From Catajapyx aquilonaris (taxonomy: Eukaryota), in contig JYFJ02004076.1 in assembly GCA_000934665.2 (NCBI GenBank), positions 1-34,981 of the forward strand: a DNA stretch of 34,981 nucleotides, in the 5' to 3' direction. The notes under the pieces were generated by a model. It did not search any database and had not been told where the DNA came from. It saw only the letters and a program-made list of their open reading frames with translations. This document shows, in pieces, positions 6,138 through 32,630 of the stretch. Position 1 is the stretch's first letter. Each line of letters starts with the position of its first letter. The position numbers were made by a program, and so were the translations under genes.

Positions 6138-6273
6138 GCTATAATCTGTCACATTCATGTGGCTTTATCAGGGCTTTATGGTACAGCCAAACCTAATCAT
6201 TATTGCGGGCAATGGTGGTCATAAATATGCGCAGAAAAATTTGAATAATCTGCAAGTGCATGAGGTACAACGG

Positions 6274-7693: not shown

Positions 7694-7961
7694 TTTTCTG
7701 CAACAAGCGGTAAATACTCTGACCCTCTTTGAACCTTCACCAGGGCAGCCAATTGTACCATCACCCCCGACCACGACTTAAACTGTCTGATCCTTTGCTG
7801 GCGACTCGTCTGAACGTGTCCAAACTGTTTTAGAAATTGTGCCACGGAGAGCCCATTAATATAACATCCGAGAAGCCGAAGGGTGACACTGAAAAGGAGA
7901 GTCGATGGCGGTGATCAATGCCATTGTGTCCAGAAGGGAGTGTTTGGTTAAGGTGGAGACA
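7694..7961 (-). promoter_or_regulatory. Conserved GR upstream/5'UTR module (copy before GR-b)
   Basis: Near-identical to 5812-6085 and to the reverse complement of 11010-11277. Confidence 0.5.
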
Positions 7962-8230: not shown

Positions 8231-9628
8231 GGGGTCATTCCAGGACAGGACGCCCCTAGGACAACACCCTCCATTTTTTGATTTTGATGAAATGCTGCAT
8301 GCAAGTCCCAAAATGGACGAGTAAGTAAATACCCAATTTTCAGACACTTAGGTTCAATAGGCCAAGAGTTATGCCATGGTCAAAATTGAAGAAAATCCGA
8401 AACATGTACTCAAAAATCGCACCATATCTCAGTAAGTACTTACTCTACCGCGACTTTTCGCATATCGATAGATTTGCAATAGTGTGGAGGAGACGATGGA
8501 TGCATCAAAAGAATTTTTCAGTGCAGGAAAAGCGTCATTTTCGCGAGGTCAAGTTTTGTGACCTTTGACCTTGACCATGTCCTCCGGTCGAAATGCTTGA
8601 GAATAAACACACTGATACCCACACATCTGTTGTATTCACCTGTATAAGTTTAATTTTAGTACGAAAATGTCTTCTGGGCGAAAAAAAATCCAGACTGCTA
8701 CCGTGTCATTGAAATCTTCAATGGCGGTAAGGTCGAGATTGCATGCCGAGTCTCTTGCAATCTCGACCTTATTGATTAGCGGATGGGTATTTTTTTCTTG
8801 AGACCGACGAGTATTACGCCTACCAACTCCGGGGCTACGCCGTCATGTTACCTGGGACACAATTTTGCAGTTTACAATCATGTGTCTGCATTTAACCTCC
8901 TGAAGCCCAGATTTGTTTTAAAAAATTTTTTTAAATTTTAATTTTTAATTTTTTTAAAAAAAATTTACAATAATTTAAAAACCCAATGGCTAAAGGGCTG
9001 TACGCGGGGCGTCAGGAGGTTAAATCAAATCAGGAAATTTTTATGAGGGCCATCCCCTAATCACCATCCACTAATCAATAAGGTCGAGATTGCAGGAGAC
9101 TCGGCATGCAATCTCGACCTTACCGCCATTGAAGATTTCAATGACACGGTAGCAGTCTGGATTTTTTTTCGCCCAGAAGACATTTTCGTACTAAAATTAA
9201 ACTTATACAGGTGAATGCAACAGATGTGTGGGTATCAGTGTGCTTATTCTCAGGCATTTCGACCGGAGGACATGGTCAAGGTCAAAGGTCACAAAACTTG
9301 ACCTCGCGAAAATGACGATTTTCCTGCACTGAAAAATTCTTTTGATGCATCCATCGTCTCCTCCACACTATTGCAAATCTATTGATATGCGAAAAGTCGC
9401 GGTAGAGTAAGTACTTACAGAGATACGGTGCGATTTTTGAGTCCATGTTTCGGATTTTCTTCAATTTTGACCATGGCATAACTCTTGGCCTATTGAACGT
9501 AAGTGTCTGAAAATTGGGTATTTACCTACTCGTCCATTTTGGGACCTGCATGCAGCATTTCATCAAAATCAAAAAATGGAGGGTGTTATTCTAAGAAAAA
9601 AGGGGGCGTCCTGTCCTGGAATGACCCC
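8231..9628. mobile_element. Non-autonomous foldback/MITE-type DNA transposon with ~560-bp terminal inverted repeats
   Basis: 8231-~8788 and ~9063-9628 are near-perfect inverted repeats (ggggtcattccaggacaggacgcccc ... ggggcgtcctgtcctggaatgacccc). Removing the element restores GR-c exon 4. The target duplication reads as CA (2 bp) or CCAG (4 bp, with termini 8232/9627). No transposase ORF. Confidence 0.92.
8896..9019. mobile_element. 124-bp piggyBac-like mini element nested in the foldback element
   Basis: TTAA at 8892-8895 and 9020-9023. TIRs CCTCCTGAAGCCC / GGGCGTCAGGAGG around an A/T-rich core. TTAA TSD with CC..GG ends is typical of piggyBac. Confidence 0.7.
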
Positions 9629-10970
9629 CAGCCAACTGTGAAGGAGACAATAACAGTCATTAGCTGCACATTTTTATCAAATCCGCCCTGTACATGACTT
9701 ACCGCTGTCAATAGGCCCCGGTTGACAGAAAAGTAATTGGCTGCTGATATCTCGATGGGAGGACCGGTCAGCTTCTGAACCAGTACTTCCATCTGAAACA
9801 TACAGTGGTACGCTTCAGGAAATGCAGATTGAATGGGGGAAGAGTTGAGGTGCATCACTCACATGTGCCTTGATGCTTGGATTGATGTCCCGAGGACAGG
9901 AGTGGATGAGGTGTGGCAATGCCCTCGTGCTCTGAAAACATCAAAAAGAAGCGGATTATAGTCCCAGCAAATGACACTCACTGTCAGTGGAAGATATACA
10001 CCATACCTGCTGCGGTATGCGTCCCAATATGATGGTGAATGTAACGAGTGATGACACCATTACCGCAATAACGAATATTTCAATTATTGGGTCAATTATA
10101 CTTTGGTGGGCGTTCACAAGCATGTAAAAGACAAATTCGGTAATACGGATGACATATATCAAGAAGGTGGCCATGATGGATGCTCCGTAAGTGCTGCCCA
10201 TGTCCTCTACTATCAGGCAAAGGTCGTACAAGAGATCGCTGGCAGACATTTAACTTCTCAATCAACTCTTCATCATTGTTGTGATCCTCCCTGGGACCGG
10301 TGCTTTGGGCTGTACAGACATGGATTACTTCCTCGTTGAAATCATCTAGCTTCAGTCGAAGGACTGTAGCCAAAAAAGTCACTTGCACGGGGATCAATTG
10401 TATCAGAAAGAAGGAATGCGCAACAATGATGGTCTGAAACATGTTGTGAGACTCAATCTGTTGTCCACCTCGAATTAGCAAAAATATCACGTATGTTTGT
10501 TCAGCTAACGGCAGCAAGAAGCAAGCAGACGCCAGAAGTGCGGACCATTTTCGCAGTTTCTTCTGGTGGCGACTAATGTTCAGTGCGGAAAAGCGGTGCA
10601 TCAGTTTCGAAATCCGAGTAATTCTGGTTTGGCAGAAAATGTAGTGAAGCCACGGACCAACCACAGCTACTGCAAAGAAAGTTATGATTGTCGCCCAAGA
10701 GGTTGTGCTCGTGCCATTGTTCCTGTGCCATTTCTGAAGTGGTTTTCAAGTCAGTACTGCTATGTAAGTGGCCAGCAGAATGAAGTGCACCATTGCAGGC
10801 CACCGTTGGTACCACTTCCAATTTGCATCTTCCCTGGGCCAAGGACAAGGAGCGATTCCTCCAAAGGTGGCCAAGATGGACAGTGGTCTGGCCAACATTC
10901 TTTACAATTGAATCAATTTGAATGTACTGTTCTGTACAGGCGTAGGAAGGTCATAAATAATAACCTGAGC

Positions 10971-11277
10971 ATGGATTTATTGGTGGAGAGGCCGCTCCCT
11001 GAACTTGACCTTGTCTCCACCCTAACCAAACATTACCTTCTGGACACAATGGCATTGATCACCTCCATCGACGCTCCTTTTCAGTGTCACCCTTTGGCTT
11101 CTCGGATGTTATATTTATGGGCTCTCCAGGGCACAATCTAAGACACTTTGGGCATGTTCAGACGAGTCGCCAGCAAAGGATCAGACAGTTTAAGTCGTGG
11201 TCGGGGGTGATGGTACAAGTGGCTGCCCTGGTGAAGGTTCAACGAGATTCAGAGTATTTTCCACTTGTTGCAGCAAA
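10971..11277 (+). promoter_or_regulatory. Conserved GR upstream/5'UTR module (copy before GR-d)
   Basis: Same module as 5812-6137, in the opposite orientation. Confidence 0.5.
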
Positions 11278-12697
11278 ATGAACAGATCAAATCGCGACTT
11301 CCTCACGTTACGTCGACCATCACCAGTGATTCAAGTGAGCGTGGCAATGCCACCGGAAGGAAGTGAGGAGCAGAGAGACGCGTTTTGGACTTCATTCAGA
11401 CCACTGTCCATCTTAGCCACCTTTGCAGGAATCGCTCCTTGTCCTTGGCCCGGGAAAGATGCAAATTTGAAGTGGTACCAACGGTGGCCTACAATGGTGC
11501 ACTTCATTCTAATGGCTGCATATGTCGCAAAAGTGACTTGGATGCCATTCACGTTTTGGTACAGGAGCAGTAACACGAGCACAACAAGTTGGTTGACAAC
11601 ATTAACTCTTACTGGAGTACGGGTGTGTGGTCCATGGCTTCACTACATTTTCTGCCAAACCAGAGTCATTCAGATTTCGAATCTAGTACACCATTTTTCT
11701 GCACTAAACTTGCGTCCTCATGAGAGGAAACTTCGAAAATATTCTACACTGCTGGTGGCTGCTTGCTTCTTGCTGCCGTTAGCTGGAGTCTCACACATGA
11801 TATTTGCCTACTTTCGAAGAGGACAACTGTTTCAATCTTACAACATGTTGGACATAATCATTGTGTGGCACTCTTACTTTCTGCTTCACTTGATCCCCGT
11901 GCAAGTGGCCTTCTTGGCCACAGCCATCGCATTGAAGCTGGATGATTTCAATGAGGAAGTAATACATGTCTGCACTGCACAACGAAACGGACCCAGTGGT
12001 AACAAGCTGGTCACGAAGTTAATGTCTGCCAGCGACATGTTGAACGACCTTTGCCTGATAGTGGATGACATGGGCATAACTTACGGAGCATCCATCATGG
12101 CCACCTATCTCATATATGTCGTGTGGATTACCGGCAGTGTGTTTTACTTACTTCTTGATACAGACCAAAGTATAGTTGGCCCAATAATATTAGTAGTGGC
12201 TTTTGGGATAATCGTCCTATCAGTCGTTACCTTCACCATCATCTTGGGACGCATACCTCAGCAGGTAATTAGTACCGGGACATGTCTCTTCTATTGAGAG
12301 CCGTTGACTGTGATAATAATTACTATTTTGATGTTTTCAGAGCACTAGAGCATTGCGTCACCTCATCCACTCCTGTCCTCGGGCCACCAATCCAATCATC
12401 AAGGCACACGTGAGTGATGCACCTACACATTTAAACCTTCATTTCTGAAATGCACAACTGTACATTTCAGATGGAAGTATTCATACAAAAGCTGACCGGT
12501 CCTCCCATCGAGATATCTGCAGCCAATTACTTTGCAGTCAACCGAGGCCTATTGACAGCCGTAACTATGCAGAGCATATTAATTTTGATAAACTTATGTG
12601 GAAGTGTAGCTAATCACTCTTCATGTCTCCTTCACAGTTGGCTGCAGCAGTGACCACATACGCCATAGTCCTGGCGCAGTTCAACGGAGCAGAATAG
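11278..12697 (+). CDS. Gustatory receptor GR-d, 4 exons, 401 aa
   Basis: Exons 11278-12264, 12341-12409, 12471-12560 and 12638-12697, all phase-0 GT-AG. Ends LAAAVTTYAIVLAQFNGAE*. Confidence 0.92.
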
Positions 12698-12708
12698 CCG
12701 TTGTACCT

Positions 12709-13191: not shown

Positions 13192-13303
13192 ACGTGGCAG
13201 TTTCACCATTGCAGTGGAGTGACACGGACTGAAAATAGGCAAGGCCAAATCGAGAGGACATTCCCTATAGCTGGCACTTAGGATTGGACAAGAAATTCTG
13301 CTC

Positions 13304-14752
13304 ATGATAAGGTCCAACAGAGTGGTTTCGATGAAGGAAATGAACAGCTCAAAAGACAATGCATTTTGGGAAGTGTTGAGACCAGTGGCCATCATGTCAG
13401 TGGTTGGAGGAATCGCTCCTTTTCCATGGCCCAAGAAAGAGGACGATTTCAGAGGAAAGTGGTACAGACTGTGGCCAACAATGGTTCACTTCCTCTTACT
13501 CGCCACTTACATCGCCATCTTCAGCTGTCATCCTCCGAAGGTCCTCCTGACCAGTGAGAACCAAGAGAAAAGCCAGAATAAAACATTGACTGGTCTCATT
13601 GTGCAGGCCCTTCTTAGCATTGCCTCGTGGCTGAACTTCATCTGGGTTCAAAAGAGTCTCACGAATATTTGGAAACTAATCAACCGATTGTCAAATCAAG
13701 ATGTGAGCAGGCACAAAAGGTCACTGCGAAAATGTTCATTGTTACTGGCAGTAGCCTCCGCCTTATTTCCTTTACTGGAATTGTCTAGGATGATTACTGC
13801 TCTGGCTCTTGAAGGGGTGTTATTTCAGTCGTATTACTTGTTCTTTGTGTTCTATGTGTGGCACTGTTTATTCCTGCTTCACATTATTCCCAGTCAGTTG
13901 GTATTCCTGGTACTAGTTATCCAGTCGCACATTAAGGATTTTAACAATGAAATCACAAGAATATGCCATTTTCTACACCAATCCACTCCGGAGCAACAAA
14001 ATAGCGAAAGTCTAATAAGGAGCACTAGCTATTCAGCTGATCTCTATTACGAATTCAGTGCCTTAGTGAACACGATTAACAACACTTATGGCATACACAT
14101 CATGATCTTTTTCCTGACATGTGTCATCTGGACTACGAAATCTCTATTTTGTTTAGTCTCGATTTCCGAGCCATTAATTATCACCTATACGAGACTCATT
14201 GTCATTACCCTCATCATCGTTTCTGTGGTGGTTCTCACTATTGTTTTGGGATCAATTGAAAGACAGGTACAGTGTTACATTTAGCAGTTAGTTTGTGACC
14301 ATATTAATGTTTCAACATTTTCAGAGCAGCAGTTCCCTGGACGATCTCATGAACGCAAATCGTCGGGTTGTCAATCCGAGTGTAAAGGCAGACGTAAGCG
14401 TTAGATGGTGTTCAGTGCAGTTTGTTTTTCATCATGTAATAACTGAAGAAATTAATTGCACTTTCGCTTCATTATTCAGATCGATTCGCTGATCCAGAAG
14501 ATGACTGGTTCTCCCATAGAGATAACTGTGGCCAATTATTTCACGGTTAATCGAAGCCTCTTGACGTCAGTAAGTTGTGATGCTAATTATTTTAGAGTCC
14601 GGATTTGTAGGCAAATGCCTATTTAGTTCCTTAACACTTCCTTAACTCTTCAGATCGCCGGATCTGTGACCACGTACCTTATAGTTCTGGCTCAATTCAA
14701 AGGGGCTGAGAAGTTGGAGGTTTCTTCTACCACAGCATCACCTAACATATAG
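13304..14752 (+). CDS. Gustatory receptor GR-e (more divergent paralog), 4 exons, 406 aa
   Basis: Exons 13304-14266, 14325-14393, 14480-14569 and 14654-14752. Internal exons are the same 69 and 90 nt as in the other GRs. Signature IEITVANYFTVNRSLLTS-IAGSVTTYLIVLAQF. Confidence 0.92.
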
Positions 14753-17081: not shown

Positions 17082-17802
17082 GTAAGTTTTAATCAAATGC
17101 ATTCTGAACCATCCTGCCCATGTTCCGAGGGCCTACACAACACTTCACTTACTATTCCCATCCCAGGTCATAAATACGGGAATAATTGTTTAATACCAGT
17201 GAATAATGTACCGTATGAGAAACAGTTACGTTATGCATAGTTCGCAACCCGTTCAAATCCTTTCTATACTGTTCTCTTTGTACTGGTTATGTAATAGTCT
17301 AAGCAGGGTATTGATATGTACTGTACATGGGATATGACTGTATACTGTGACTGTACTAGGGTATCAGTATACTGGCAGGTGGAATTTTTCGTAATTATAC
17401 TAAGCAGATTTATTTTCTCTAAAAATAGCCAGTACTATTTTCCCCTAGGTTTATAGGATTATAATATTATGAGCTTGCCTTTCACATAGATGATATCATT
17501 AAAGGATTGATCCTCCTTTACTCCTTTGAGATAGTGGAAAATGTATATCTCAGAATTTCACGTTTCTAAAAGGGAAGTAATCGTGATGGCATAATTTATC
17601 TGGTTCGCAAAGCATCATTTTTGTGCTTATAGGATTTTGCATGAATGTGAGGGAGATTGTAAGGGAAAAAATCGGAAAACTTATTACGATGAAAATTACA
17701 TGGACCACCATCCTGCTGGATCATTACAGTCAATATAGTCAAATCAGCAAACAGTCACTTGTGTATCCCTTTTGGTTTAGTCGGTGTACGTGAGTGTCCA
17801 AG

Positions 17803-19755
17803 ATGAAGCTGCTCGTGTGCATCGCTGTTCATCTGTGGCTCACTTGCATCGTCGCAGAGTTGATAATACGTCAAAATGATAACAATCATCTGTCCCTGGT
17901 GACCTCCCTCATTGCCAGAATACACCGTGAGAGAAATGACTGTCTCCTGGTACTGGGTCACGATTACGAGGTCATCCCGGATTCCATCAACGACCTAGTC
18001 AGGAACATTACAAGCGGAGGAGGACTGGTTACTGCTGTCCGTTGGTCCGAGTCTACGATACTTCCATCGCCCAACCCAAACCGTGACGGCAACTTTGAGT
18101 ACTGGTTCTCATGGATGGAGAGGACCACTGCCCAATGGCTGACCAACTGCGGCTTCTTTGTGATGATCTACCACAAAGGTCACTTCCAGCAGGTCATGAG
18201 GTACATGGCCAGTCTGGTCAGGACGAACCCCAGGATAGACCAATACTTGTACTACAGCCCGGATTCGGACGTCTCTCAGGACATGCTGAACATGGACTAT
18301 CGATTCCTGTTCCAAGTGGGACTAGTCCAAGAGGATCCGGACACCATCAGCATTGTCAACAACTGTCATTTCTGCAACAAAGGACAGGCCAAGGTTGTCC
18401 AGAGGGGCAAGTACAGGATCCAATCAGGGCTTAGTCCTAATGATCTGAAGATATTCCCTGATTACTCCAACAGTGTGAACGGACGATATGTCAACATCAC
18501 TTTCTCTGTTGGGTCGTCCAAAGCCGACATGGATTATTTTTTGGAAAACGACATGCCGGTGTTGCCGTACATAAGACCATTTCACACAGCTGCTCAACAT
18601 TTCAACTTTGACTTCCATATCGAGTCACCTGTGGAAGAAGCTGGGATCGAAGCTGTTTTGCCAGATGGGAACTGGACAGGCATCATAGGTCCTTTGCAGA
18701 GAAGAGAGTCGGAATTGGGGGCAGCTCTATGCGCCAGTGGTGTGATGGCTGTCATTGACTTGACCACTTGTTTCTACCCAACGACAATCACTCTTACTAC
18801 CAGGATGCCTCGACCTCTGTACACTTGGGGTGCCATAGCCAAGCCTTTCACACCGGATATGTGGGCAGCAATATTCGCAACAGCAACAGTGGTCACCCTT
18901 GTCTTCTACTTTCTCCTAAAAGTAGAGTACAGCATGGGAAAACCTTTTCCTGTAGAAGCAACCCCACCCACTCACCTCTCCTTGTACTCTCTCCGGTTCT
19001 CATTTTCCGCCCTGATTGAAGAAAACCCTAATCTGATCCCAACAGTCGACTCGTTGAAGGTATTGCTGTGCTTTTACTGGCTGTTTTGCGACCTGATTGT
19101 CCTGGCTTACGAGGCCATGTACTTCGGATTCATGGTCTCTCCAGCACTGGAGCCTCTGCCCAAGAGCCTGAAGGAGATGGTGGACTGGCCCAACTGGAAG
19201 TGGGACACCATGGACTATGTGACGGACTCGGCCAACATGCTGACGGAGTTTTCAGAGGAAGAGCACATCAAGAAGTTGAGGGCCGGGATGCAAGGAGGCA
19301 GCGACATGACCGGATGCATGGTGAGGACGATTGAAGAGGACTTCAGCTGCCTGGCCTTCGATCAGTTCCTGGACGCCTTGTCCTGGCAGTTTATCGACTT
19401 GGAAGGAAATCGTCCTGTCCAAACTGTGCAGGACTCTTCCTTGTGGATCACTGCTTGTTTATCAACCCCCAAGTATTCAATTATGTTTCACGCATTCAAA
19501 CGTTTCGAGTTGTCTCACGTCAAGGGAAACTTGTTCGGCTTCTGGACCACCGAATTTTCATACTTGGTTTCGCTGATGGCCATGAGAGATGCCAGGGCAA
19601 AGAACCTGTCCTACACACCTCCCATGGCCCTCAACATCAGTCAGTTGAAGGCTCCGTTTGCCATTCTGGGAACCTTCATAACCATTGCTTTCTTCGTCTT
19701 CATTGGCGAGGTCATCAAATTCCGTGTGGACAAGAAGAAGAAAGAGACCAAGTAA
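17803..19755 (+). CDS. Divergent ionotropic receptor (IR-B), single coding exon, 650 aa; close paralog of IR-A
   Basis: ATG 17803. Colinear with IR-A at a constant offset of 16643 nt, with the same motifs. Confidence 0.9.
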   Translation: MKLLVCIAVHLWLTCIVAELIIRQNDNNHLSLVTSLIARIHRERNDCLLVLGHDYEVIPDSINDLVRNITSGGGLVTAVRWSESTILPSPNPNRDGNFEYWFSWMERTTAQWLTNCGFFVMIYHKGHFQQVMRYMASLVRTNPRIDQYLYYSPDSDVSQDMLNMDYRFLFQVGLVQEDPDTISIVNNCHFCNKGQAKVVQRGKYRIQSGLSPNDLKIFPDYSNSVNGRYVNITFSVGSSKADMDYFLENDMPVLPYIRPFHTAAQHFNFDFHIESPVEEAGIEAVLPDGNWTGIIGPLQRRESELGAALCASGVMAVIDLTTCFYPTTITLTTRMPRPLYTWGAIAKPFTPDMWAAIFATATVVTLVFYFLLKVEYSMGKPFPVEATPPTHLSLYSLRFSFSALIEENPNLIPTVDSLKVLLCFYWLFCDLIVLAYEAMYFGFMVSPALEPLPKSLKEMVDWPNWKWDTMDYVTDSANMLTEFSEEEHIKKLRAGMQGGSDMTGCMVRTIEEDFSCLAFDQFLDALSWQFIDLEGNRPVQTVQDSSLWITACLSTPKYSIMFHAFKRFELSHVKGNLFGFWTTEFSYLVSLMAMRDARAKNLSYTPPMALNISQLKAPFAILGTFITIAFFVFIGEVIKFRVDKKKKETK

Positions 19756-20479
19756 TGGAACAGCCGCATTGTTACAGTCTAATGGGACAGGCACTTGCAA
19801 CACTAAAATATCACGCAGAGTTATTGCATGCGATAAGCACAATCAACTGACATTTAACATGTGTTTATTCCACCATTTAATGGCTACTACACAGCAGCAA
19901 ATATCGCCCCAACAAATGCATGATGTATTCTGCAATAATAGGAGTGTATGCACTCTTATGTCCATTAACAGATTCAATGTGTAAAAGTATTCTCTCATTG
20001 CTTCAGATCAGAATATATTTTACTCATTCCAACAATATTGATATGCCCATCTTTAAAGCGACATCTATGTCCATCTGTGATGAATGAAGTGCATTAAATA
20101 TACCGACATTCAAGTGATGTTAGTATAGACACTGACGTTTTATTTTGCATATGTAGATAGGTCTAGAACAATTATTGACATGTTGAATTAATAATGAAAT
20201 AGCTTAGTCATAATTGAGTATGAAAAAACGTCACTCAAGTTACATGCACTTGTCAAAATGATCATAGCACATTACAATTAATAGCATCGTGGTTCTTTAG
20301 AGTGATTGTAGTACTACGTTTTACTCACAAATGACACCACCATCCAACATATAGTATGAAGCATTAATGTGAAGCAAAGGTCCTGTCCTATAAGTGCGAC
20401 TTTATGAATTATTGTAGTGAAATTAGTCCAAGAAAAATAAAATAGGTTTAACATCCACAAAATTATACGATTTCCTTTC

Positions 20480-21078: not shown

Positions 21079-21118
21079 TATATAAGTAAGACGATGACAT
21101 CGTGATTTTTCAGTCAGT
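21079..21118 (+). promoter_or_regulatory. TATA box + arthropod initiator of the FPPS-like gene
   Basis: TATATAA at 21079-21085, and overlapping TCAGTCAGT at 21110-21118 about 30 nt downstream. ATG at 21144. Confidence 0.7.
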
Positions 21119-21143
21119 TTCAAGCAAGACACAAGTGAACATT

Positions 21144-22596
21144 ATGGCCTCGGTTATCCAAGAAGAACTGGCCAGATTGGCCACGTAAGTAACAACAATG
21201 TTTGCATGATTATACCACATAATATTGGGCACACTTACATTTTCAGATGCAACAATGTAGTGAAGAATCCGATGAAAGAAGAACGCGAAAAGCTTTTCTC
21301 ATTATTCCCTCAAGTTGTGACCGATCTGACTCAAGAAATTGACCATCCTGTGCTTCAAGACCTAACTAAATGGTACACGGACGTTCTTCAGTACAACATC
21401 GTTGGAGGAAAGATGACCAGAGCACTCACGTTTGTAATGGCCTGCACGCATCTGATGGAAGGCTCGTTAAATGAAGCCAAATTACAGTTGATTTACAGCA
21501 TAGGATGGTGTATCGAACTGGTCAGTAATTTTTTAAATATATTTTTGACTTTTTTTAAAATATTTATTTGTAAAGCTTCAGGCAGCCGTGTTAGTAGCAG
21601 ACGATATTATGGACAGGAGTGAAACACGACGTGGTAAACTCTGTTGGTACAAACAAAGCCACGTGGGAGTAATGGCAGTTAACGACGCTTTTTTACTGGA
21701 CTCTGGAGTGTACTGCCTTTTACGAAAATACCACGAGAAGCAGCCGTATTACACGAATATTCTTGATGTACTTCACAAGGTAAGTGTACCCTGAATATTT
21801 CATACACATTTTAACATTATTTTCTCATCTTCTAGGTACATTTCTACACAAATTTGGGCCAAACACTTGATAGTCTTAGCTGTAGCACAAAAGCCACTCC
21901 TAGACTACACATGTTCAACGACGAGAGACTTGAGATGATATGCAAATACAAGACCACTTATTACACCTTCCTGCTACCAGTTTCATTGGCCATGTACGTG
22001 GCTGGTATAACCGACGAGAAGCTTCATAGCCAAGTGGACAAAGTGTTTGAGAGGGCTGGAGTATTGTATGAAGCAGAGAATGATTTTTTGGATTGTTATG
22101 GAGACGAGGTGATGACTGGAAAGGCTGGAACTGATATCCAGGAAGGGAAATGCACTTGGTTTGTGGTCACGGCTTTGAAACTGGCCAATAAGGAGCAGAG
22201 GAAGATTCTGGAGGTTAGGTTCGAATATTTGTAAAAATTCGTAGAATTCGTAAAATTCGTAGAATTTACACCTAAATATTCTAACAGTTGTCTGCGAGAT
22301 TATTATTTTTTTTGCGAAATATAGTATTAATAATATGATTTTTTTTTAAATTTTAGGAATGTTTTGGAAGTAGTGATCCAGATGATGTCATAAGAGTGAA
22401 GAATCTCTACAATCAACTGAATCTTCCTCGTCGTTTTCTGAAGTACGCTGAAGATCTGCGGTCTTCTTTGTTTGAAGATATCTGCAGTCTTCCTTCCGAG
22501 ATGTTCCGGTCATTGTGCAAACGAGTAATGGACGAGGCGTACATCAGAAACACGTCTTATGTCAAAAAAATTATTGAAGAGCAATTTCCAGTTTGA
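21144..22596 (+). CDS. Farnesyl diphosphate synthase-like trans-isoprenyl diphosphate synthase (divergent; candidate terpene synthase), 5 exons, 378 aa
   Basis: Exons 21144-21184, 21247-21520, 21576-21779, 21836-22213 and 22357-22596 splice in frame. Motifs [90 protein letters not shown]. Confidence 0.92.
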
Positions 22597-23581
22597 AGAG
22601 AAAAATAATTATTGTTGCCTTATCGAATTGATGTGTAAATTTCAAAGTAAAAACATTGCACAAAAATTATGTTTAGTTCGATTATTTTTGGTTATGTATT
22701 AGATAAAGTGTGGTTATTAAACTGGTAAATAATATGTAATGTGTAACTTACTTCACAAGGCCCCAACTATTGTATGGGTACCAATTGAATTAATGTGAAT
22801 TATAATAGTCAACCCACGCTTACGTAATTAACTCATTAACTTATCTCCAGGACAATGTATGGGAGTTTCGTAATATAATCCAGCCGACTTCTTACTCAAG
22901 TCTTATCATTTGTATCATTGTGTCACATGGTGTCAAACTAATGATTACGTTATCATAATGATCCCAATAAATTAGGATAATACGGTTTAAGAAATCTAAT
23001 ACAAGTAGAAAATACCGCAACTTTTGGTGACAACTGGTGAAAATAAAAGTATGCCAACCTTCAGTTCTATCGAAAAAGTTATTCTGCGACGCAATACTGA
23101 AATATGGTTGTGCAAAATTAATATGCGCTTACATAACATTGTCTGCTATCAGAGTGAGATTATTTAAAATATTTCCTAAAGTACGTTTGAAATATTCAGC
23201 CTAATATGAAATTCATGGTTTGAATGATCAGGCTGCAATTTCAGCTATCACAAAATTTGATTATAAATTATTAAATATTTTATCTACCTTATGCATAAAA
23301 AACTATGACCGTACGAATGTACAGTTATGATTTTATTTATTTATTATGCAACTTGATTGGAAAATTCCGAAACAAAATTTTAAACGAACTATGATGTTTC
23401 ATACAATCAACTTGAACAATGTCATTTTAATGCAATTGTTCCACAGTAATTGATGTCAAATTATTTGCATTGTACGTACTCTCTTTTTAAACTTGCATGA
23501 TGTTTCAATTATTATTTTGGGCATACCTATATATATATATATATATTGCAGGCATCTATGTACAGCCCGTGATATTTTACA

Positions 23582-26500
23582 ATGTCGCCCATCATTTTTC
23601 TGCTGCTGGTTGTACCTGCTCATACAACGGTACGTACTTTGTATTCACTTGTTGGTATGTGTAATTGACATCAAAAATTTCAGACTATATTACCAACCCT
23701 GCCAGATGAAACGGACATACAGTTGGTCAGTCGGTTCGTACAGGAGATACAACTTAAACAAAAAGATTGTCTGCTAGTTATCGGACACGACTACAGGATA
23801 ATGCCATGGTCCATCGTAAGTCTGGTAGGAAATATGAGCCACGAAGGTGTCACAACGGTGCCGGTACGTTGGTCCGAACTGACACCGGAACCGGACAAAA
23901 ACACCGGAGAATCAGGCAACTTCGAGTACTGGTTCTCATGGCTGGAAAGACCCACAGCCAAGGTACGTGACAAGTGCACAACGTTCGTCCTGCTGTACCA
24001 TCGAGACCATTTCGAAGCTCTGATCCGGTATGTGGCCAGTACAGTCCGGATGAACCCGAGGACAGACCGAGTGGTGTACTACAGCCCGAATTCGGACGTG
24101 TACGGAGCCATGTTGCATCCGGACTACCAGTTTCTGTACCAACTAGGACTGAGTCACGATCCGGCTTCCAAGTCACTCAGGATTGGCAACAATTGTCATT
24201 ATTGCAACTCAGGACACGCGAAAGTGGTCGACAGAGGAAGGTGGGTCAAAATTTCTGAAATATTGCATGTCCATAGACACGATAGGCAACCCACAGTGCA
24301 GATGTGTCTGGGGGCACCAATTTGTTTGCATTTTGTACCTAGACACACGTGTCACATAGGTTGCCTTGTGTGTCTAGGGATAGATTTGGAAATATTGCCG
24401 CCCCTAGACACACTTCAGCATTTGTGTCTAGGGGCATGCTAATTTTTCTAAAATTCCATTGAAAATTTTTAAGGAGCGCAACCGAGTGCGCTCCCACACT
24501 CGCGCAGCTCTCTTGTTGTGACATCAATATCGCCAGAGTTACTCTCCAGCGACCAACGTGACCTCTAAGTAGGGCTGTGCGATATCCGAAAGTGCATATC
24601 GACTTTTGATACTCAAAAATATCGAATCGATATATCGATATATCGAGAATCGAAATACCGTCATCGAATCGATATATCGATATATCGAGAATCAAAATAC
24701 CGACATCGAATCGATATATCGATATATCGAGAATAGAAATACCGACATCGAAAAATATCGAAAATCGCGATATTCGATACATCGCACATGCCAAGGGTAG
24801 GATATCGCAACTTCGATATTAGGAAAATATCGTATCGACAGTCGATGTATCGAAATATCGCACAGCCCTACCTCTAAGGTTCGTTCAAGAGCCTTGGCAA
24901 AGTCGAAAACGTCAGCCATTTTATTCCCCTCTAAGAGTAGCGTTGGAAATCAGTTCAGCGCTTACCCACTATACAGAGCTTACCAGATGTTATTAATAAT
25001 TCCAACCCTGCAAGTAGCGCGAACTGTGGTGCGCACTCGGTTGCTCTCATTAAAAACTTACCTACCGCAGCTAATTTTTAAATATATTTTGAACCAGGTA
25101 TGACCCACACGGGTTGTGGCCTCCCGAACTTGACCTGTTTCCTGACCTGTCCCGAGACCTGCATGGTCTCCATCTAAACGGGTCGTTTCCTGTCCCGAGC
25201 ACTCCGGACCAGATGCGAAGTGCTGTTGCCCTGGGCCTGCCGACCTTTACCTTCATGAGGATGTACCTGCTAGTAGGAGATGCGGTCAACTTCGACTGGC
25301 ACCTCGAAGCACCAGTGGCCGAACCTGGTGTTGAACAAGAGGCACTGACTGCAGACGGAAACTGGACCGGAATCATAGGTCGTCTATTGCATCGTCAGAT
25401 CCAGATGGGATCGTGTGTGGCGACTGCTCTTAACAATGTATGTGATCTGTCGTACCCGTACTATACCGGAAAGGTGGAGTTCATACGACGTACTCCAGGT
25501 CCTGTGTACTCATGGATGTCCATTGTACGACCGTACACACCCGGAATGTGGTGTTGTATCCTTGCAGCCGCAACTCTATGTAGCGGACTATTCTGCGCAA
25601 TGATATACGTACATCACGACCCGTTCGGTACCAATCCGCCTCGATCCATACCTCTGTACTCATTACGGTACATGTTCTCCAGCCTCATTGAAGAGAACCC
25701 GAACCTCATTCCGACCGCCGATTCGCTCAGAGTTTACATCGCATTCTGGTGGTTGTTCAGCGAGGTGATTCTCTGCGGGTTCGAGGCATTGTACATCGGG
25801 TTTCTGGTGTCCCCTGAGATGGAATCGCTGCCTGGAGACATGAAGGAGATGGTGGACTGGCCCAACTGGCAGTGGGGGTCAATCGGTTGGCTCAAACCGT
25901 ACATTATCACGTTCACGGCCGAGTCGGAGCTGGATACGCATATGGCGCTCAAACAAGGATTGCAGGTATCAAGAGAAATCCGCACTAACACGGAGAGAAC
26001 TGGGCGTACCAAGGAGAAACGCCCAATATCCAAACCTGGAGATATGACGTTTTTCCTTGGGACGACAGCAGATCTGGTAATATTTTCTTAGAACGGCGGC
26101 GGCATGTCCCAAGCAGAAACTACCTATCTCCAGGTTTGGAGATATGGCATTTCTTCTTGGGACAGCAGATCTGATCTTTTCATATAGGACGGTGGAGACA
26201 CCACGGATTGTCTTCTACGAGCGATCGAGCACGACTTCAGCTGCATTGGACTACTGGACATCCTGATATCCATGTCCTACCAGCGGATGGACATGGAAGG
26301 GACGCCACCGGTCGAGATATCGAACGACAACTCGATCCAGTTCTTGGCTGGAATAGCGGTTCCGAAGTATGCAATATTCGGTCCGATACTAGGTCGCACG
26401 CAACTGTACGCCAGGGACACTGGTATGCTCCAGAAGTGTGAAGATGACTTTGCACATGCTTTTGCAGTGCTGGGATTGAGGGAGGCAAGGGCTGAAGGAA

Positions 26501-26679
26501 GGTTGTATAAGTATTCAATGGCTCTCAATATCGGGCATATGAAAGGGATATTTGTCATGCTGGTGTTGCCACTTGCTGTGAGCATTGCGGTGTTTGCAGG
26601 CGAGATGGGGTGTTTTTGCAGGGGTAAGAATAGAGGTAAGTTGTCTGGGTCAAATCAGGTCATGCACTTCACAAATTGA
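23582..26679 (+). CDS. Divergent ionotropic receptor (IR-C), 4 exons, 654 aa; same subfamily as IR-A/B
   Basis: Exons 23582-23629 (signal peptide MSPIIFLLLVVPAHTT), 23684-24240, 25098-25965 and 26188-26679 splice in frame. Shares GNFEYWFSW.ERPTA, NNCH.CN.G, DGNWTGIIG, LIEENPNLIPT and KEMVDWPNW with IR-A/B. Confidence 0.88.
24473..25049. mobile_element. Older TTAA-flanked TIR element in IR-C intron 2 (Kolobok-like ends)
   Basis: TTAA at 24469-24472 and 25050-25053. Imperfect ~35-bp TIRs ggagcgcaaccgagtgcgctcccacactcgcgc / gcgcgaactgtggtgcgcactcggttgctctca. Superfamily call is tentative. Confidence 0.6.
24570..24870. mobile_element. 301-bp hAT-type MITE with internal ATCGAT-rich tandem repeats
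   Basis: TIR TAGGGCTGTGCGATAT / ATATCGCACAGCCCTA. Exact 8-bp TSD CCTCTAAG at 24562-24569 and 24871-24878. Three ~42-bp internal repeats at ~24621-24750. Confidence 0.92.
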
Positions 26680-27497: not shown

Positions 27498-29603
27498 TTA
27501 CTGCTTCTCATCATCTTCTTGGCTAATTACGAAAATTTCGGAATTTTCCTCATTGCTGCAGTCACTTGCTGGTTTTTCGTCTGAATCCTGCTGAACAGCC
27601 GCACTCTTCAGCATCTTTGTCATCTCCAGAACGAACGTCACCAAAGCAACGGCCATTCCAATGGCCCAAAACCCAACCACAACCAGTATGTTCTCACCTC
27701 TGACTCCAGAAGATGGACTCGCATCATCTACCACAGATTTTCTCTCGAAACTCAACTGCCTTCTATTCAACCAATACTTGTGAAATGACTCAACTCGAAT
27801 CCATTGAGCAACCAGGCCACTCTCCTGAATCCGCTTGTGGTAACGGAATATCTTTGGAGACAACACGTTACTTTTGTCGAAACCAAATGTGGTGTACAGA
27901 TCATACGATTTTTCTGGAGCAACTCTTAAGGTGTGTCGACCCATATGATCCAGATAGCTCTGTATGTTTCGTTCAATGAAAAAGTTGAAAGCCAGACACG
28001 CTCTCTTCTCCTTACCTATCACTTGTTCCATGCAGCTTTCAGTGTTGGGTAATGATGATGATTGGTTAATCATTTTCATATGGATCTGATTGTTGACCAC
28101 CTGACTCACCAAAATCTTACTGTAGATGTTCATCAAGCATTCAAATCCTTCTTGGTACAGCTGGTCCATGGTGTTTGGTAGATTCTCCTTAGGCAGAACA
28201 GACAATACGGCTAAGAGTTTGGTCACATATGCGCATGATATGATGATTGACATTAGCATCAAAACGCCTTCGAATATCCGAGATGTTGCAAGAGGCGGGA
28301 GGTCATACTGTTGATCAATCAGCATCTTAAATATAGAGGATGTTACTGACCCAAGGGTGGTTGACCCTCCTGAAGCTCGAATTAGCCTCCAGAGGACTAC
28401 TCCAGAGATGAACCAGGTCACACTCAGGGCCAGCCACAACCTTGGTGTGAATGGAAGGAAGAGTATATCCAGTGGAATGACATCGTTGGGCACTGCGGTC
28501 ACAAACTCAAACAGAAACACTGTGGGTTGAGTTGGAATTGCGACCTGTCGGACATGTAATCCGGACAAGATACTGATGGTTCCAGCATCAGCTTCTCCAG
28601 ATAAGATGTATCCAACAGCTCCTGTCCAACTTCCGTTTGGACGCATGATGTCGATAGCATCTTCTGTAAAATCGGTGTTGATTATCACCTCATATTTGAC
28701 CTTCATTGCGTTTTCCATTTCGAGAAACAAGGACTCTGTGCTGCTCAGATACTCTTTTCCAAGAAGAGCCTTGTTTTTACGGGACACATCTGTGTCCACT
28801 GTTTCGAAATGGACAAACTTGATGGCCGCAGGTTCGTTTGAAATTTCATCTTGATGTGTGTACATTTCTTGAGTCACTTGCTGGACAGGAAATGTTCCCA
28901 AGTTGCGGACAACTGGGCGTCCTTCATGGCAGAAGAAGCAGACAGTTTGCAATTTAATGGTTTCATCTTGATTGTAGCTGTAAAAATATCCCAAATTATT
29001 AAATTTTTTAAATTTCGGGTAATAGTCGTCAACATACCTGGAAATTAGCTTGTAACGAATTCCCTTGGCTGGATGATCCATCAGCTTCATTTCGTCAGAG
29101 AGATGTCGAAAATGGAGTAAGAAGAAGTCGTCCAAGTTCCGAACCTGGACTGTCCCAGCAACTTGTATTAGTTGTTCAGGGAAGGTGGTAGGAGTGTCGG
29201 ACACCAAGACGTGCAGGACACAGGTACCTCCAGGTTGCACTTGGGACATCATATCAGGAGGCATGGTGGTGAACGAGTAGATCTGATCATGACCTGTGAT
29301 TCCGATGTACTCGTTCCATGGTTTGGGTCGAAACACGTTTTGCCCTACATTGCTGAGCGAAACATATGTCGAATAAGCCAGACTCTGCTGTATAAACAGC
29401 CGCGATAGGGATTGACTCGCACATTTGTTGCCATCACCCACTGACAACACCAAAGAGCAACCGCTCAACTCTTTCTGTTTCAAAATATCGGAAGCCAACT
29501 GAAACACCAAGGCATCTTCCTGGTCCTCCGAATGCAACGTGACACTTTTACCATTACATAATGTCAACAGCATCAACACCAAATATGTGACAGTCATGAT
29601 CAT
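27498..29603 (-). CDS. Divergent ionotropic receptor (IR-D), distant from IR-A/B/C; 681 aa if the 60-nt intron is spliced, 701 aa if retained
   Basis: ATG 29603 with a signal peptide. Motifs CFFC, NGSWTGAVGYILSGEADAG, PFTPRLW, AYVTKLLAVL, IQESGLVAQW and last helix GMAVALVTFVLE. Probable intron at 29037-28978. Confidence 0.9.
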   Translation of the reverse strand: MIMTVTYLVLMLLTLCNGKSVTLHSEDQEDALVFQLASDILKQKELSGCSLVLSVGDGNKCASQSLSRLFIQQSLAYSTYVSLSNVGQNVFRPKPWNEYIGITGHDQIYSFTTMPPDMMSQVQPGGTCVLHVLVSDTPTTFPEQLIQVAGTVQVRNLDDFFLLHFRHLSDEMKLMDHPAKGIRYKLISRYVDDYYPKFKKFNNLGYFYSYNQDETIKLQTVCFFCHEGRPVVRNLGTFPVQQVTQEMYTHQDEISNEPAAIKFVHFETVDTDVSRKNKALLGKEYLSSTESLFLEMENAMKVKYEVIINTDFTEDAIDIMRPNGSWTGAVGYILSGEADAGTISILSGLHVRQVAIPTQPTVFLFEFVTAVPNDVIPLDILFLPFTPRLWLALSVTWFISGVVLWRLIRASGGSTTLGSVTSSIFKMLIDQQYDLPPLATSRIFEGVLMLMSIIISCAYVTKLLAVLSVLPKENLPNTMDQLYQEGFECLMNIYSKILVSQVVNNQIHMKMINQSSSLPNTESCMEQVIGKEKRACLAFNFFIERNIQSYLDHMGRHTLRVAPEKSYDLYTTFGFDKSNVLSPKIFRYHKRIQESGLVAQWIRVESFHKYWLNRRQLSFERKSVVDDASPSSGVRGENILVVVGFWAIGMAVALVTFVLEMTKMLKSAAVQQDSDEKPASDCSNEENSEIFVISQEDDEKQ

Positions 29604-30302
29604 GCGAGTGTCACACTCGCAATAGCTTATCCATGCCCATAGCCAACACAAAGTTGTAACTGTTGAGCACTTAGGTGATGAGAAATTATTGACTGGAACG
29701 AAACTCGCAAGGGCCTGTTAAGCAACAGCATGGTTTCAAATAAATCATGACTCATTTTCGCAAGTAAAGGTCAATGATGCCTGTGCTAACCTGTATTTGC
29801 AACACTCCATCGCAACTAACAGTACTAATTTTCACATTAATAGTCACACCATTGCCAAAGAAGTATGAAGAGATGTGTCAACACTATAGTTCTGAAAGAA
29901 ATCGACATAACATGTCGAAACTTCATCAAGAAGAGTGCTCCAGATGTGCCAATGACAAGAAATGAAGTATTATGACCAAATTATGACACATCCTCTGGAA
30001 ATTTTGGCTCAAATTGCTGGCAGCAGACAGGCCTATTCTGTGAAGACGTTCTTCATAACACTGTCATCTTCTTTCCATGGGCTGATTGCAAAGGAGTTTT
30101 AACTCATTCTCTTCATTAACTTAATGACCTTTTAGCTCAAGATGGGTGTGGATTGTCATTACCAAAATCACTTTGGTTTAGCACGTTGTAATCGACACGT
30201 TCAGCATGGTAAGTAGCTCTGGAGTCACTAAACTTGAATATTCGGAAGCAAACGACAGCGGGATGAAAGATAATCCCGTCATAAAAAGGCCTCTGAATTC
30301 AA

Positions 30303-31206
30303 CTAGTCCTCCTTGTCTTGGACACTCGTCTTCTTGCTCTTCTTTCTTTTCCCTGAGATCTTAGCCTTGGCCACCACATTCTTAGATCCGGGTAGGCTGG
30401 GGAACGCAGGGAGTCGCAATGGTTTCTTGTCCATTGGGGCCTGGACAGCTGAAGAAGGGCGAGAAGGAGGTGGTGATGGTGAATGGCTGTCATCAGACTC
30501 CGATGACCTGAAAGAGCATGGTATTATTACACCACTCTCTTAGATGTTGATCCATGTTGATTCTGGGTCAACCTACCTATGTTGTTTAAACCGCTTGAAT
30601 TGCTGGTTTCTGAAGGAGCGTCGCTTCGCCTTGGTCAGCCCCTGGGGTACGGGAACACTGAAACCACAAGGTACAATATTATTGACTGTCAAATTGCACT
30701 GGTACCAGTGTCATTGTGAAAAATGCAGAACATCGGTAATAAGACTTTTCAGTGCAAACAAAGGCCACCGGTGAAATAAGAATGACGAGACGAACTTACA
30801 TCAAATTCGGTGTTGTCTTCAGCTTGAGTGACGGATCGTACGTCCCATCCTGTGCCTCCTCCCAAGACTCGCATCCCTCTGACACATTAAGACTGGGATG
30901 TTCCATGTCCGACACATGTGAAGTCTGTGCCTCTGAGTTGGGACGGCTTGGGCAAGTGTCCATGTGGCTCTCCAACTTCGTGGACGGGACGTGGTGCGAT
31001 GAATTCCATCCACAAACTTCCAGCCCGGAGTGTGGGTATATCCTCCTGCATTTCACAATATGCTGGACGAACCTGCTGGCCAATATCTTATTGTGACTGT
31101 TGTTGTAAGGGCAGATCATGACCATCTCCCCTTCATCCAGCGGATACGACATCGAGACTCCCACCTGGTCCGAGTCGCTTCCGTCATGGACAGACGTCAA
31201 CGTCAT
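30303..31206 (-). CDS. GTSF1: Gametocyte-specific factor 1 / Asterix-like protein (two CHHC zinc fingers), 3 exons, 230 aa
   Basis: CPYNNSH...HIVKC and CGWNSSHHVPSTKLESHMDTC, followed by acidic ESWEE..YDP. Exons 31206-30800, 30657-30577 and 30507-30303 splice in frame (phase 2, GT-AG). Confidence 0.82.
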
Positions 31207-31429
31207 TTTCTTGCTCTGCCGAATAATTGAACATTTATTTCACTGGAATTTGCTCATAATAATAATTCATCTGATGAAATGAAATGGGCAGGCCACAGTC
31301 CTTTTCGTCAAATCCAAACTTGTGTGGACATGAATCTATGATATTTAAATACAGTATCTAATTAACCATGCCCCCGCCTACCATTGCCAATTAATCATAT
31401 TAAAGGATTTACTTAATAATATATTATGA

Positions 31430-32630
31430 AACGAATTAGGGGGGCACGGCAGTGCCCCCGCCAAGTTCTCGCCGCACTGCCGGACCACCTTTACCCGACA
31501 CAACTCAAGTCATTTTGACCCCCTCGAATCTTCGCACTGGTGAACATACGTAGCTTCAAAATTTTTATTTGGGTAGATAAAAATCGATTAAAAATAATAC
31601 CCCCTTACTTCCATGTTCATATCTCTTTTCATTTCCGACTTTAAAAATCCTAAAAACTTCCGAAACGGCCAAAATATGACACTCACTCACTGACTGATCA
31701 TCAAAATTATACGGAACTTCCAGTGGTCCTAGGATGCTGAAATTTGGTATGCTGGTAGAGCTTGTCAAACAAACATCAGAATAAATCTGAAAACGGCACT
31801 TTTTTGAGTCTAAATGCTCAAAAAAAATAATTCGCGAAGTCTGCTCCTGCTGACCGGATGCGGAATTTTTAAATTTTTATCACGGATTACTTTTTACTTT
31901 GAATTTCCAGTTATGCTGGTGCTCCTCCTGCCTTCCCCACGTTCTCATCTCCTCACCCCCTCCCTTCCCCCCCCCCCNCCCCCCCCCCCCGAAATCTTGT
32001 GGATTAATGCCATTTTATCTGGCTTATTAGCTTAGAAGATATCAATTAAATATGGAGCATGAAACAGAGATTCATTAGTGTCACTTAGAGATAATTGAAT
32101 GAAGATTGCAACTTTCATTGTTATTGGTCGATACTGAACCTTTTTCGAATTTTTGTCGTCTTAATTGTAATATTTTGACACGTATGGTGATATCTACAGG
32201 GTGATCAAACTTTTTTGTCGTTTTAGTTATTGACAAATTCAGTCTAAGCTGCTTATATTGTAGCCCGTTCCCTGGCAACCCCGTCCGGTGGGCCAATTCA
32301 AAAATCAGCCCATGGAGAGCGCTTCCATTGTTGCCACTGTTTACAAATCGCGTGAGTGACGCGGACGACCCAGCGACGGGTCTCTTCTGCCTGCGCACTC
32401 ACTCATTCGATTTGTAAACAGTGGCAACAATGGAAGCGCTCTCCATGGGCTGATGTTTGAATTGGCCCACCGGACGGCGTTGCCAGGGAACGGGCTACAA
32501 TATAAGCAGCTTAGGCTGAATTTGTCAATAACTAAAACGACAAAAAAGTTTGATCACCCTGGTATATTGCGATTTTTATATGGTGTTTTACATTCCAAAA
32601 TTTAATGCTGACAGCTCAAGGCTTTGATTA
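31430..32630. mobile_element. Probable Helitron/Helentron-associated non-autonomous repeat (DINE-1/HINE-like); boundaries approximate
   Basis: Subterminal hairpin gggggcac-ggca-gtgccccc (~31440-31459), internal (CACT)n/TGAC microsatellite followed by gctgaaatttggtatg (31681-31752), and a poly-C tract. Assigned by recalled resemblance to arthropod rolling-circle non-autonomous elements. Confidence 0.45.
32197..32561. mobile_element. 365-bp Tc1/mariner-type MITE, almost fully palindromic
   Basis: ~160-bp near-perfect TIRs CAGGGTGATCAAACTTTTTTGTCG... / ...CGACAAAAAAGTTTGATCACCCTG. TA on the left and GTA on the right (imperfect TA TSD). Confidence 0.88.

Follow-up and report, generated by a model that had tools for sequence, protein, structure and literature searches.

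A diverged and transcribed farnesyl diphosphate synthase-like gene of Catajapyx aquilonaris, possibly a two-substrate prenyltransferase with an altered product

Gene structure and transcription

The DNA analyzed here is contig JYFJ02004076.1 of Catajapyx aquilonaris (34,981 nucleotides, hereafter the window). A gene similar to farnesyl diphosphate synthase (FPPS), which we call the FPPS-like gene, is located at positions 21144-22596 of the forward strand. It sits among tandemly duplicated chemoreceptor-like genes, with no evident functional link to them. The gene consists of five exons, and its coding sequence (CDS) of 1137 nt encodes 378 amino acids (aa) plus a stop codon. All four introns (4/4) have GT..AG borders, and they are 62, 55, 56, and 143 nt long. 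The coordinates of exons, motifs, and neighboring features are listed in Table 1.

Five public sequencing runs contain this stretch. Four are DNA runs of one sample, possibly the source of the window. The fifth (X5), from another study and with no recorded kind, contains 0.70 of the sampled words. One X5 contig (1180 nt, spanning 21124-22619) omitted exactly the four predicted introns and differed in 0 other letters, and a second X5 contig continued the transcript from 22607 to 22886. Meanwhile, a DNA contig of run X1 was colinear with the window, with no joints and 0 differing letters. The simplest reading is that X5 is derived from RNA, an origin read solely from its intron-less contig, and that the FPPS-like gene is transcribed and spliced as modelled. 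The X5 contigs, of which the first starts at 21124, carry no information on level, strand, tissue, or true transcript ends. Since the contigs of X5 and X1 showed 0 mismatches, the odd residues of the FPPS-like protein are not assembly errors.

An earlier first-pass annotation, made without database searches, had described an intact five-exon open reading frame (ORF) here, and the spliced X5 contig matched all four of its junctions. The TATA and initiator (Inr) motifs that it had proposed as a promoter were located as well, both being consensus matches only.

Family membership and phylogenetic position

A Pfam scan was made exon by exon. For PF00348 (polyprenyl synthetase, cut-off 27 bits), exons 3 and 4 were above the cut-off and exon 2 alone was below it (scores in Table 1), and the scan of exon 5 gave no match. 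Among solved structures, exon 4 was closest to the leaf-beetle isoprenyl diphosphate synthase (IDS) PcIDS1 (8A7B, E 1e-34; 8A6U, E 5.4e-34). Animal FPPS structures came next at about 1e-30, and 56 distinct chains were found at E ≤ 0.001. Of the 148 candidates from a word-based search with exon 4, 35 reached E ≤ 1e-10, and the top identity was 52%. In addition, an exhaustive HMMER scan with this exon gave 2695 matches at E ≤ 0.001, and none of the 150 matches listed of these 2695 had more than 51% identity over the exon. A close orthologue of the FPPS-like protein was not found in the collections searched. Furthermore, homologue searches with neighboring genes were empty: the ionotropic-receptor-like ORF had no homologue at E ≤ 1e-5 in the word-based search, and none was found for the ORF with a CHHC zinc finger. 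Judged by these empty searches and by the Atlas, which gave nothing narrower than Arthropoda, the host lineage is an arthropod lineage without close annotated relatives.

The best full-length match was P0002, a 387-aa transcript-contig protein without a name, which had 49.7% identity over 340 residues (range 47-50%). The FPPS motifs of P0002 are fully canonical, its C-terminus reads ...KIYHRNI, and it carries an N-terminal extension of about 25 Arg-rich residues. In a quick tree of 103 rows, the FPPS-like protein and P0002 were sisters (Shimodaira-Hasegawa-like approximate likelihood ratio test, SH-aLRT, 99). They were also sisters in a careful tree of 34 rows, picked from the 103 for being named or near the query, with a support of 100/99 and a shared stem of 0.32. 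In this tree, the end branch of the FPPS-like protein (0.96) was 2.6 times longer than that of P0002 (0.37). The pair fell outside every named order, in an unresolved fork whose members include an amphipod, a termite cluster, a cockroach, a mayfly, and Hymenoptera; a beetle was also named among the tree neighbors. A tblastn search with the spliced protein against the 35-kb window, the only stretch of the genome searched, matched only its own exons, and so gave no second FPPS-like copy there. The tree, the unequal rates, and the residue changes described below lead us to infer that the FPPS-like gene is a paralogue, specific to its lineage, of a canonical FPPS such as P0002.

Changed residues

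The FPPS-like protein was compared with 102 stored homologues that match over at least 290 residues and are shorter than 520 aa, partial or over-long matches being left out. First, the residues at -5/-4 before the first aspartate-rich motif (FARM) are AV where canonical FPPS has FF/YF. FF or YF was present in 45/102 homologues and exact AV in 0/102. Both residues were non-aromatic in 16/102, and 2 further rows were gapped there.

Second, the second aspartate-rich motif (SARM) is YEAENDFLD. Compared with the canonical FQxQDDYLD, four of its nine residues depart from the pattern, the replacements being Q to E, I/V to A, Q to E, and D to N. The FPPS-like protein has Glu at positions 252 and 254, which are Gln in 101/102 and 98/102 homologues, respectively, and Glu in 0/102 at either position. 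At position 255 it has Asn, found in 9/102 homologues, and 92/102 have Asp. A looser scan with a regular expression covered all 213 stored proteins and recognized the motif in 177. Glu was found at the first Gln position in 0/177 and at the second in 1/177, namely in P0034 of the sandfly Lutzomyia longipalpis (YVIENDYFD). The E-x-E-N-D helix is present in 0/102 homologues and is partly paralleled only by this one sandfly protein.

Third, the C-terminus is displaced. Residues Y361-I-R363-N-T365 align with the end of P0002 (YHRNI) and are followed by a 13-residue extension, SYVKKIIEEQFPV. A canonical FPPS has a short basic C-terminus that ends about three residues past Tyr-x-Arg, and the FPPS-like protein does not. 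C-terminal extensions of any kind were seen in few of the 102 aligned homologues, mostly strongly diverged ones.

The alignment has 38 columns with a conservation of 90% or more among the homologues, and the FPPS-like protein keeps 34 of them. The changes are Q252E, Q254E, D255N, and Y302F, and three of the four (Q252E, Q254E, and D255N) fall within four residues. P0002 has 0 changes in these columns and the median homologue has 1, and at least 4 were found in 11/102 homologues. By this count, the changes are focused, few, and clustered, not a general decay. The first-pass annotation had read the AV pair and the YEAENDFLD motif as we found them, and the KxxR, RRG, and KT elements that it gave as retained are present as GGKMTRA, SETRRG, and KYKTTYYTF. 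Its replaced basic tail needs a correction: the tail is indeed altered (IRNTSYVKKIIEEQFPV), but it is really a 13-residue extension after RNT, and the conserved Arg is kept. Also, "erosion" was the wrong word for changes so few and so clustered.

We also asked how long the reading frame stays open when the CDS is substituted at random (2000 trials each). The open frame was retained in 6% of the trials at 5% substitution, in 0.55% at 10%, and in 0/2000 at 20% or 30%. Since the frame is open, the splicing is exact, and 34/38 columns are kept at about 50% protein divergence, the gene has been under purifying selection for most of its divergence.

Retained machinery

The contacts of six motifs that bind isopentenyl diphosphate (IPP), here called IPP-binding motifs (IBM), are reported to be 98% conserved in insect IDSs versus 10% in characterized insect terpene synthases (TPSs), in which four or more motifs are substituted on average (PMC10108439). 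The sandfly sobralene synthase keeps 3/15 and a flea-beetle synthase 4/15 of the contacts (PMC10962984). The FPPS-like protein keeps 12/14. For comparison, P0002 and the Hyalella azteca FPPS P0039 keep 14/14, and the TPS-like paralogues keep 5/14 (Callosobruchus P0120, sandfly P0034, and P0116) or 7/14 (P0172). The kept contacts include K69, R72, E104, Q107, L111, R123, R124, T213, Y216, T217 (Ser to Thr), and K269.

Contact residues are substituted in one motif only, the SARM, and a single-motif loss is treated as a marginal TPS prediction in PMC10108439. Of the motif patterns published there, the FPPS-like protein passes those of the FARM (DDIMD, aa 114-118, which fits DD[ILMV][EFMQ]D in Table 1 of that paper), IBM-3 (SETRRG), and IBM-5 (GKAGTD), and fails that of the SARM. 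IBM-1 (T, A), IBM-2 (V), and IBM-4 (T) also hold residues outside the published patterns, at positions that make no contact or vary naturally. Set beside a canonical housekeeping FPPS, the protein differs in the SARM pattern, the aromatic pair, and the C-terminus and agrees in the IPP contacts of IBM-1 to IBM-5. The machinery for the allylic substrate is intact in sequence (DDIMD, R123/R124, K212/T213, D256/D259, and K269), and so are the basic residues for the diphosphate of the second substrate (K69 and R72, with Q107). By the yardstick of the IPP contacts, the FPPS-like gene is placed near the diphosphate-synthase end and not the TPS end.

Known roles of the changed residues

In human FPPS, the allylic carbocation is stabilized by the carbonyl of Lys200, the hydroxyl of Thr201, and the oxygen in the Gln240 side chain (PMC4652608; PMC4106277), and the IPP tail is held by Phe239 and Leu100. 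IPP binding makes the tail 350-KRRK-353 fold onto the site, with Arg351 becoming anchored to helix H once Gln242, Phe238, and Tyr349 have rearranged, and with the terminal carboxylate bridging Lys57 (PMC4106277). In beetle PcIDS1, Mg-B is held at the first SARM Asp, D319, while F315 serves to position IPP and the C-terminal carboxylate lies between R427 and K133 (PMC10396970). As to the pocket floor, a change of the aromatic pair of a stink-bug FPPS to Met-Ser kept prenyltransferase activity and gave geranylgeranyl diphosphate (GGPP) (PMC6140472).

By motif homology (FFQIQDD vs LYEAEND), the FPPS-like protein would have Leu for Phe238, Tyr for Phe239, Glu for Gln240, Glu for Gln242, and Asn for Asp243. 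Tyr349 and Arg351 correspond to Tyr and Arg, and the C-terminus is displaced by 13 residues. By these equivalents, the changes fall on one functional unit, the helix-H segment with the tail closing onto it, and also on the pocket floor and the position of carbocation and Mg-B. In a bacterial FPPS, the same Gln-to-Glu change is reported to lower activity strongly, a point that we did not use as evidence.

Comparison with known enzymes

The canonical arthropod FPPSs (P0002, Hyalella azteca P0039, and hymenopteran FPPSs) belong to the same PF00348 fold family as the FPPS-like protein, whose FARM, IBM-3, and IBM-5 match the published patterns. The K/R of IBM-1, the E/Q/L of IBM-2, and the KT..Y of IBM-4 are likewise shared. 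Unlike these enzymes, the FPPS-like protein has the AV pair, YEAENDFLD, and the 13-aa C-terminal extension, and it lacks an N-terminal presequence-like extension.

The insect IDS-type TPSs (stink-bug MhTPS, flea-beetle PsTPS1, and sandfly LlTPS) are similar in their FPPS origin by lineage-specific duplication, in the non-aromatic -4/-5 pair, in the substituted SARM, and in having no presequence (PMC10108439; PMC6140472; PMC10962984). In addition, the FPPS-like protein and the TPS-like P0034 of the sandfly have a SARM with the same E-N-D core. However, insect IDS-type TPSs lost most IPP contacts, whereas the FPPS-like protein keeps 12/14, including KxxR and RRG. Against the features reported for insect TPSs, the non-aromatic -4/-5 pair is present, and disruptive substitutions in several (average three or more) IPP motifs are not (PMC6140472; PMC10108439).

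The best solved relative of exon 4, Phaedon cochleariae IDS1 (8A6U), is a metal-dependent synthase of geranyl diphosphate (GPP) and FPP that serves defensive terpenoid synthesis (PMC10396970). Its engineered variant with the first SARM Asp changed to Asn (8A7B) has NDFLD, which is natural in the FPPS-like gene. Wild-type PcIDS1 has FQIQDDFLD and a short C-terminus, whereas the FPPS-like gene has a natural N255, two Gln-to-Glu changes, and a C-terminus displaced by 13 residues (PMC10396970).

Irregular-coupling FPPS derivatives, of the chrysanthemyl/lavandulyl diphosphate synthase type, need a second diphosphate site, and this site is retained in the FPPS-like protein. The protein also combines N255 with kept K69, R72, and R124, as expected for irregular coupling, a match that is suggestive only. 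To our knowledge, no irregular-coupling enzyme of FPPS-derived type is known in arthropods beyond trace activity. In the mealybug FPPS-like transIDS5, Asn at the first SARM Asp, which the FPPS-like gene carries naturally, left C10 formation at the wild-type level, hampered C15 formation, and abolished the trace irregular coupling (PMC10960109). An earlier proposal had made this Asp-to-Asn change a step on the way to irregular coupling (PMC10960109, citing its ref 39). Because the mealybug enzyme keeps C10 formation, the change from Asp to Asn is compatible with prenyl transfer.

Insects have repeatedly drawn on FPPS duplicates for pheromone and defense terpenoids, and the order of the mutations by which a chain-elongating enzyme becomes something else is reported as still debated; TPS-like flags were raised for 126/430 insect IDS sequences and for 88/240 FPPS-like ones (Rebholz et al., PMC10108439). 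Diverged FPPS paralogues are thus common in insects, and what the present gene seems to offer is an independent origin and an unusual, lightly modified pattern. The unusual point is this light modification, all diphosphate-binding residues being kept while floor, SARM helix, and lid changed together. The gene could show which of these units alters the product outcome, and it would add an independent origin in a lineage without close sequenced relatives. If its product is FPP or GGPP, it would be one more diverged isoprenyl diphosphate synthase.

Possible functions

Our preferred reading, to which we assign a probability of about 0.4, is that the FPPS-like gene encodes a two-substrate prenyltransferase with an altered product, and that it is a selectively maintained, transcribed, lineage-specific FPPS paralogue outside the housekeeping role. 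The departure of an FPPS from this role would have come about by a limited, focused remodelling of its active site, in three units. The aromatic pair of the pocket floor would have become Ala-Val, deepening the product pocket. The SARM helix, with L-Y-E-A-E-N-D for F-F-Q-x-Q-D-D, would have lost the carbocation Gln, the tail-anchoring Gln, and the Mg-B Asp. Normally the IPP site is closed by the terminal carboxylate, and here the C-terminus extends 13 residues past that point. Such an enzyme might still ionize an allylic diphosphate and still bind a second diphosphate-bearing substrate, and the deeper pocket together with the altered closure and metal geometry might lead to a product other than (E,E)-FPP. 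The candidates are a longer chain (C20 or more), owing to the AV floor, and a short or irregular coupling, owing to the changed SARM and lid. Since the protein has no presequence-like extension, it probably acts in the cytosol.

The first-pass annotation had proposed a neofunctionalized paralogue, either an IDS-derived TPS or an altered prenyltransferase. The first part of this proposal agrees with an intact, transcribed gene of the FPPS family that evolved 2.6 times faster than P0002 and changed at functional residues. Its TPS half is weakened by the 12/14 kept contacts (including K69, R72, Q107, R123, R124, and K269), and the altered-prenyltransferase half seems to fit slightly better. A new terpenoid-related job for the gene, as in many insect paralogues, is probable. 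The binding of two diphosphate substrates with an altered product appears more likely than a full conversion to a TPS.

Several points weigh against a two-substrate prenyltransferase. A carboxylate in place of the carbocation-stabilizing Gln, together with the displaced C-terminus, may cripple the condensation with IPP. Non-aromatic residues at -4/-5 are also a hallmark of insect TPSs and were required for stink-bug TPS activity (PMC6140472). In the set of 102 homologues, at least two further contact losses were seen in 5/9 of those with Asn at the first SARM Asp vs 9/92 (one-sided Fisher p = 0.002, a loose test since the rows are mutually related), and the similar ENDYFD is found in the TPS-like sandfly P0034. 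The human numbering was transferred by motif homology, and the direct alignment is with the beetle enzyme only. For the paralogy, the evidence is the tree and the unequal rates, since P0002 may come from another species. Furthermore, the enzymatic function is read from sequence alone, which cannot decide it.

A full switch to TPS chemistry is the close second reading, which we regard as possible but hold more tentatively. The gene would then encode an IDS-type TPS with little motif loss, in which GPP, FPP, or GGPP alone is ionized at the intact FARM and Mg sites, the chain folds in the enlarged pocket, and loss of a proton or capture of water quenches the carbocation. The IPP-dependent closure might be replaced by Glu252 together with the longer tail. 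Besides the pair before the FARM and the enrichment of NDxxD among homologues with many lost IPP contacts, this reading draws on the SARM substitutions of bark-beetle and flea-beetle TPSs (PMC6140472). It also draws on a binary heuristic that flags a candidate at any substituted IPP-contact residue and on one characterized leafhopper TPS that keeps nearly all IPP contacts (PMC10108439). The missing presequence and the fast evolution of the gene would agree with it. However, the FPPS-like protein keeps every basic diphosphate ligand of IBM-1, -3, and -5, whereas characterized insect TPSs are reported to have lost most contacts over several motifs (PMC10108439; PMC10962984).

A new coupling chemistry, independently arisen in this thinly sampled arthropod lineage, is an unlikely idea that we consider in two forms, judged together. 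The protein could be an irregular (non-head-to-tail) prenyltransferase, a kind long sought for arthropod irregular terpenoid pheromones. Alternatively, it could be an intermediate from IDS to TPS, in which the acidic cluster E252/E254/N255/D256/D259 and the lengthened lid replace the IPP-dependent closure while both diphosphate sites are kept.

It is equally unlikely that the protein is a subunit of weak or no catalytic activity that joins a canonical FPPS, or some other IDS, and modulates the product of this partner. FPPS-family enzymes are dimeric, and IDS heteromers with non-catalytic partners are known (PMC10960109); three residues of the catalytic helix and the tail are changed here in a gene that is maintained and expressed. 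However, the FARM, the remaining SARM aspartates, and the basic diphosphate-binding residues are all kept, which a pure regulator would not need, and no partner was identified.

That the gene is the sole, ordinary housekeeping FPPS with lineage-specific quirks, P0002 being the orthologue from a distant relative, seems rather improbable to us. The window holds a single copy, and the lineage is so thinly sampled that neighboring genes match no relatives. Nevertheless, Gln at 252 and 254 is near-invariant and never replaced by Glu in the homologues, P0002 keeps 38/38 columns and all contacts on a much shorter branch, and its N-terminal extension is absent from the FPPS-like protein. Furthermore, an AV pair would not be expected to stop elongation at C15 (PMC6140472).

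A recently disabled gene turning into a pseudogene and transcribed without function, to which the long branch and the loss of three near-invariant residues might point, is very improbable and was rejected because of the exact splicing, the 34/38 conserved columns, and a five-exon frame still open at a divergence where the neutral simulation kept none.

Genomic surroundings

Table 1. Features of the FPPS-like gene and its surroundings in the window
Feature	Position	Strand	Remarks
Exon 1	21144..21184	+	ATG at 21144; acidic N-terminus without presequence-like extension
Exon 2	21247..21520	+	IBM-1 GGKMTRA (21404-21424), K69 and R72 kept; PF00348 22.3 bits
Exon 3	21576..21779	+	IBM-2, chain-length pair, and FARM (21576-21614); IBM-3 SETRRG (21618-21635); PF00348 58.4 bits
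Exon 4	21836..22213	+	IBM-4 KYKTTYYTF (21944-21970); SARM YEAENDFLD (22067-22093); IBM-5 GKAGTD (22118-22135); PF00348 89.6 bits
Exon 5	22357..22596	+	Tail ...EAYIRNT, then 13-aa SYVKKIIEEQFPV; stop 22594-22596; no Pfam match
IBM-2/aromatic-pair/FARM segment	21576..21614	+	aa 106-118; motif search
Altered SARM YEAENDFLD	22067..22093	+	aa 251-259; motif search
C-terminal segment IRNTSYVKKIIEEQFPV	22543..22593	+	aa 362-378; motif search
TATA-like TATATAAG	21079..21086	+	Consensus (regular-expression) match only; about 30 nt upstream of Inr-like TCAGTC
Inr-like TCAGTC	21110..21115	+	Putative transcription start region; consensus match only
3' untranslated region	22597..22886	+	X5 contig coverage; ATTAAA at 22716; AATAAA at 22966, past the covered part
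Ionotropic-receptor-like ORFs	973..3152 and 17597..19793	+	688 and 653 aa, intronless
Receptor-like gene	23669..26679	+	Three consecutive ORFs; weak Lig_chan match in the middle one
Receptor-like ORF	27498..29717	-	739 aa, intronless; no Pfam match
Gustatory-receptor-like gene cluster	4363..7961, 9699..12708, and 13271..14284		
7tm_7 ORF	13271..14284		PF08395, 39.1 bits
Gustatory-receptor-like ORF	4672..5979	-	
Gustatory-receptor-like ORF	6674..7777	-	
Gustatory-receptor-like ORF	11194..12297	+	35% identity to the 7tm_7 ORF, E 1e-63
Gustatory-receptor-like copy	~9956..10745	-	Split over two frames, may be broken
Inverted repeat pair	8231..8786 and 9064..9628		About 565 nt, 96% identity
ORF of 298 aa	15060..15956	-	No Pfam match
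CHHC zinc-finger ORF	30796..31239	-	U11-48K-type (PF05253, 33.4 bits)
Palindrome or inverted repeat	32197..32561		About 365 nt

The two long ionotropic-receptor-like ORFs share 89% DNA identity over 2.2 kb, and both have a weak Lig_chan (PF00060) match below the Pfam cut-off, as expected of ionotropic-receptor-like duplicates. The Atlas places the second of them among arthropod ionotropic glutamate receptor clusters. The receptor-like ORF on the opposite strand had 20% identity (E 1e-09) to the ORF at 17803-19752. The three listed gustatory-receptor-like ORFs without a Pfam assignment in Table 1 are mutually 85-91% identical in DNA. The 298-aa ORF is located between the receptor clusters, and the inverted repeat pair lies between receptor-like genes. 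In addition, the CHHC zinc-finger ORF may be gametocyte-specific-factor-like. Shortly after the single N of the window (31978) lies a stretch with a 92% match to its own reverse complement, which makes it a long palindrome or inverted repeat.

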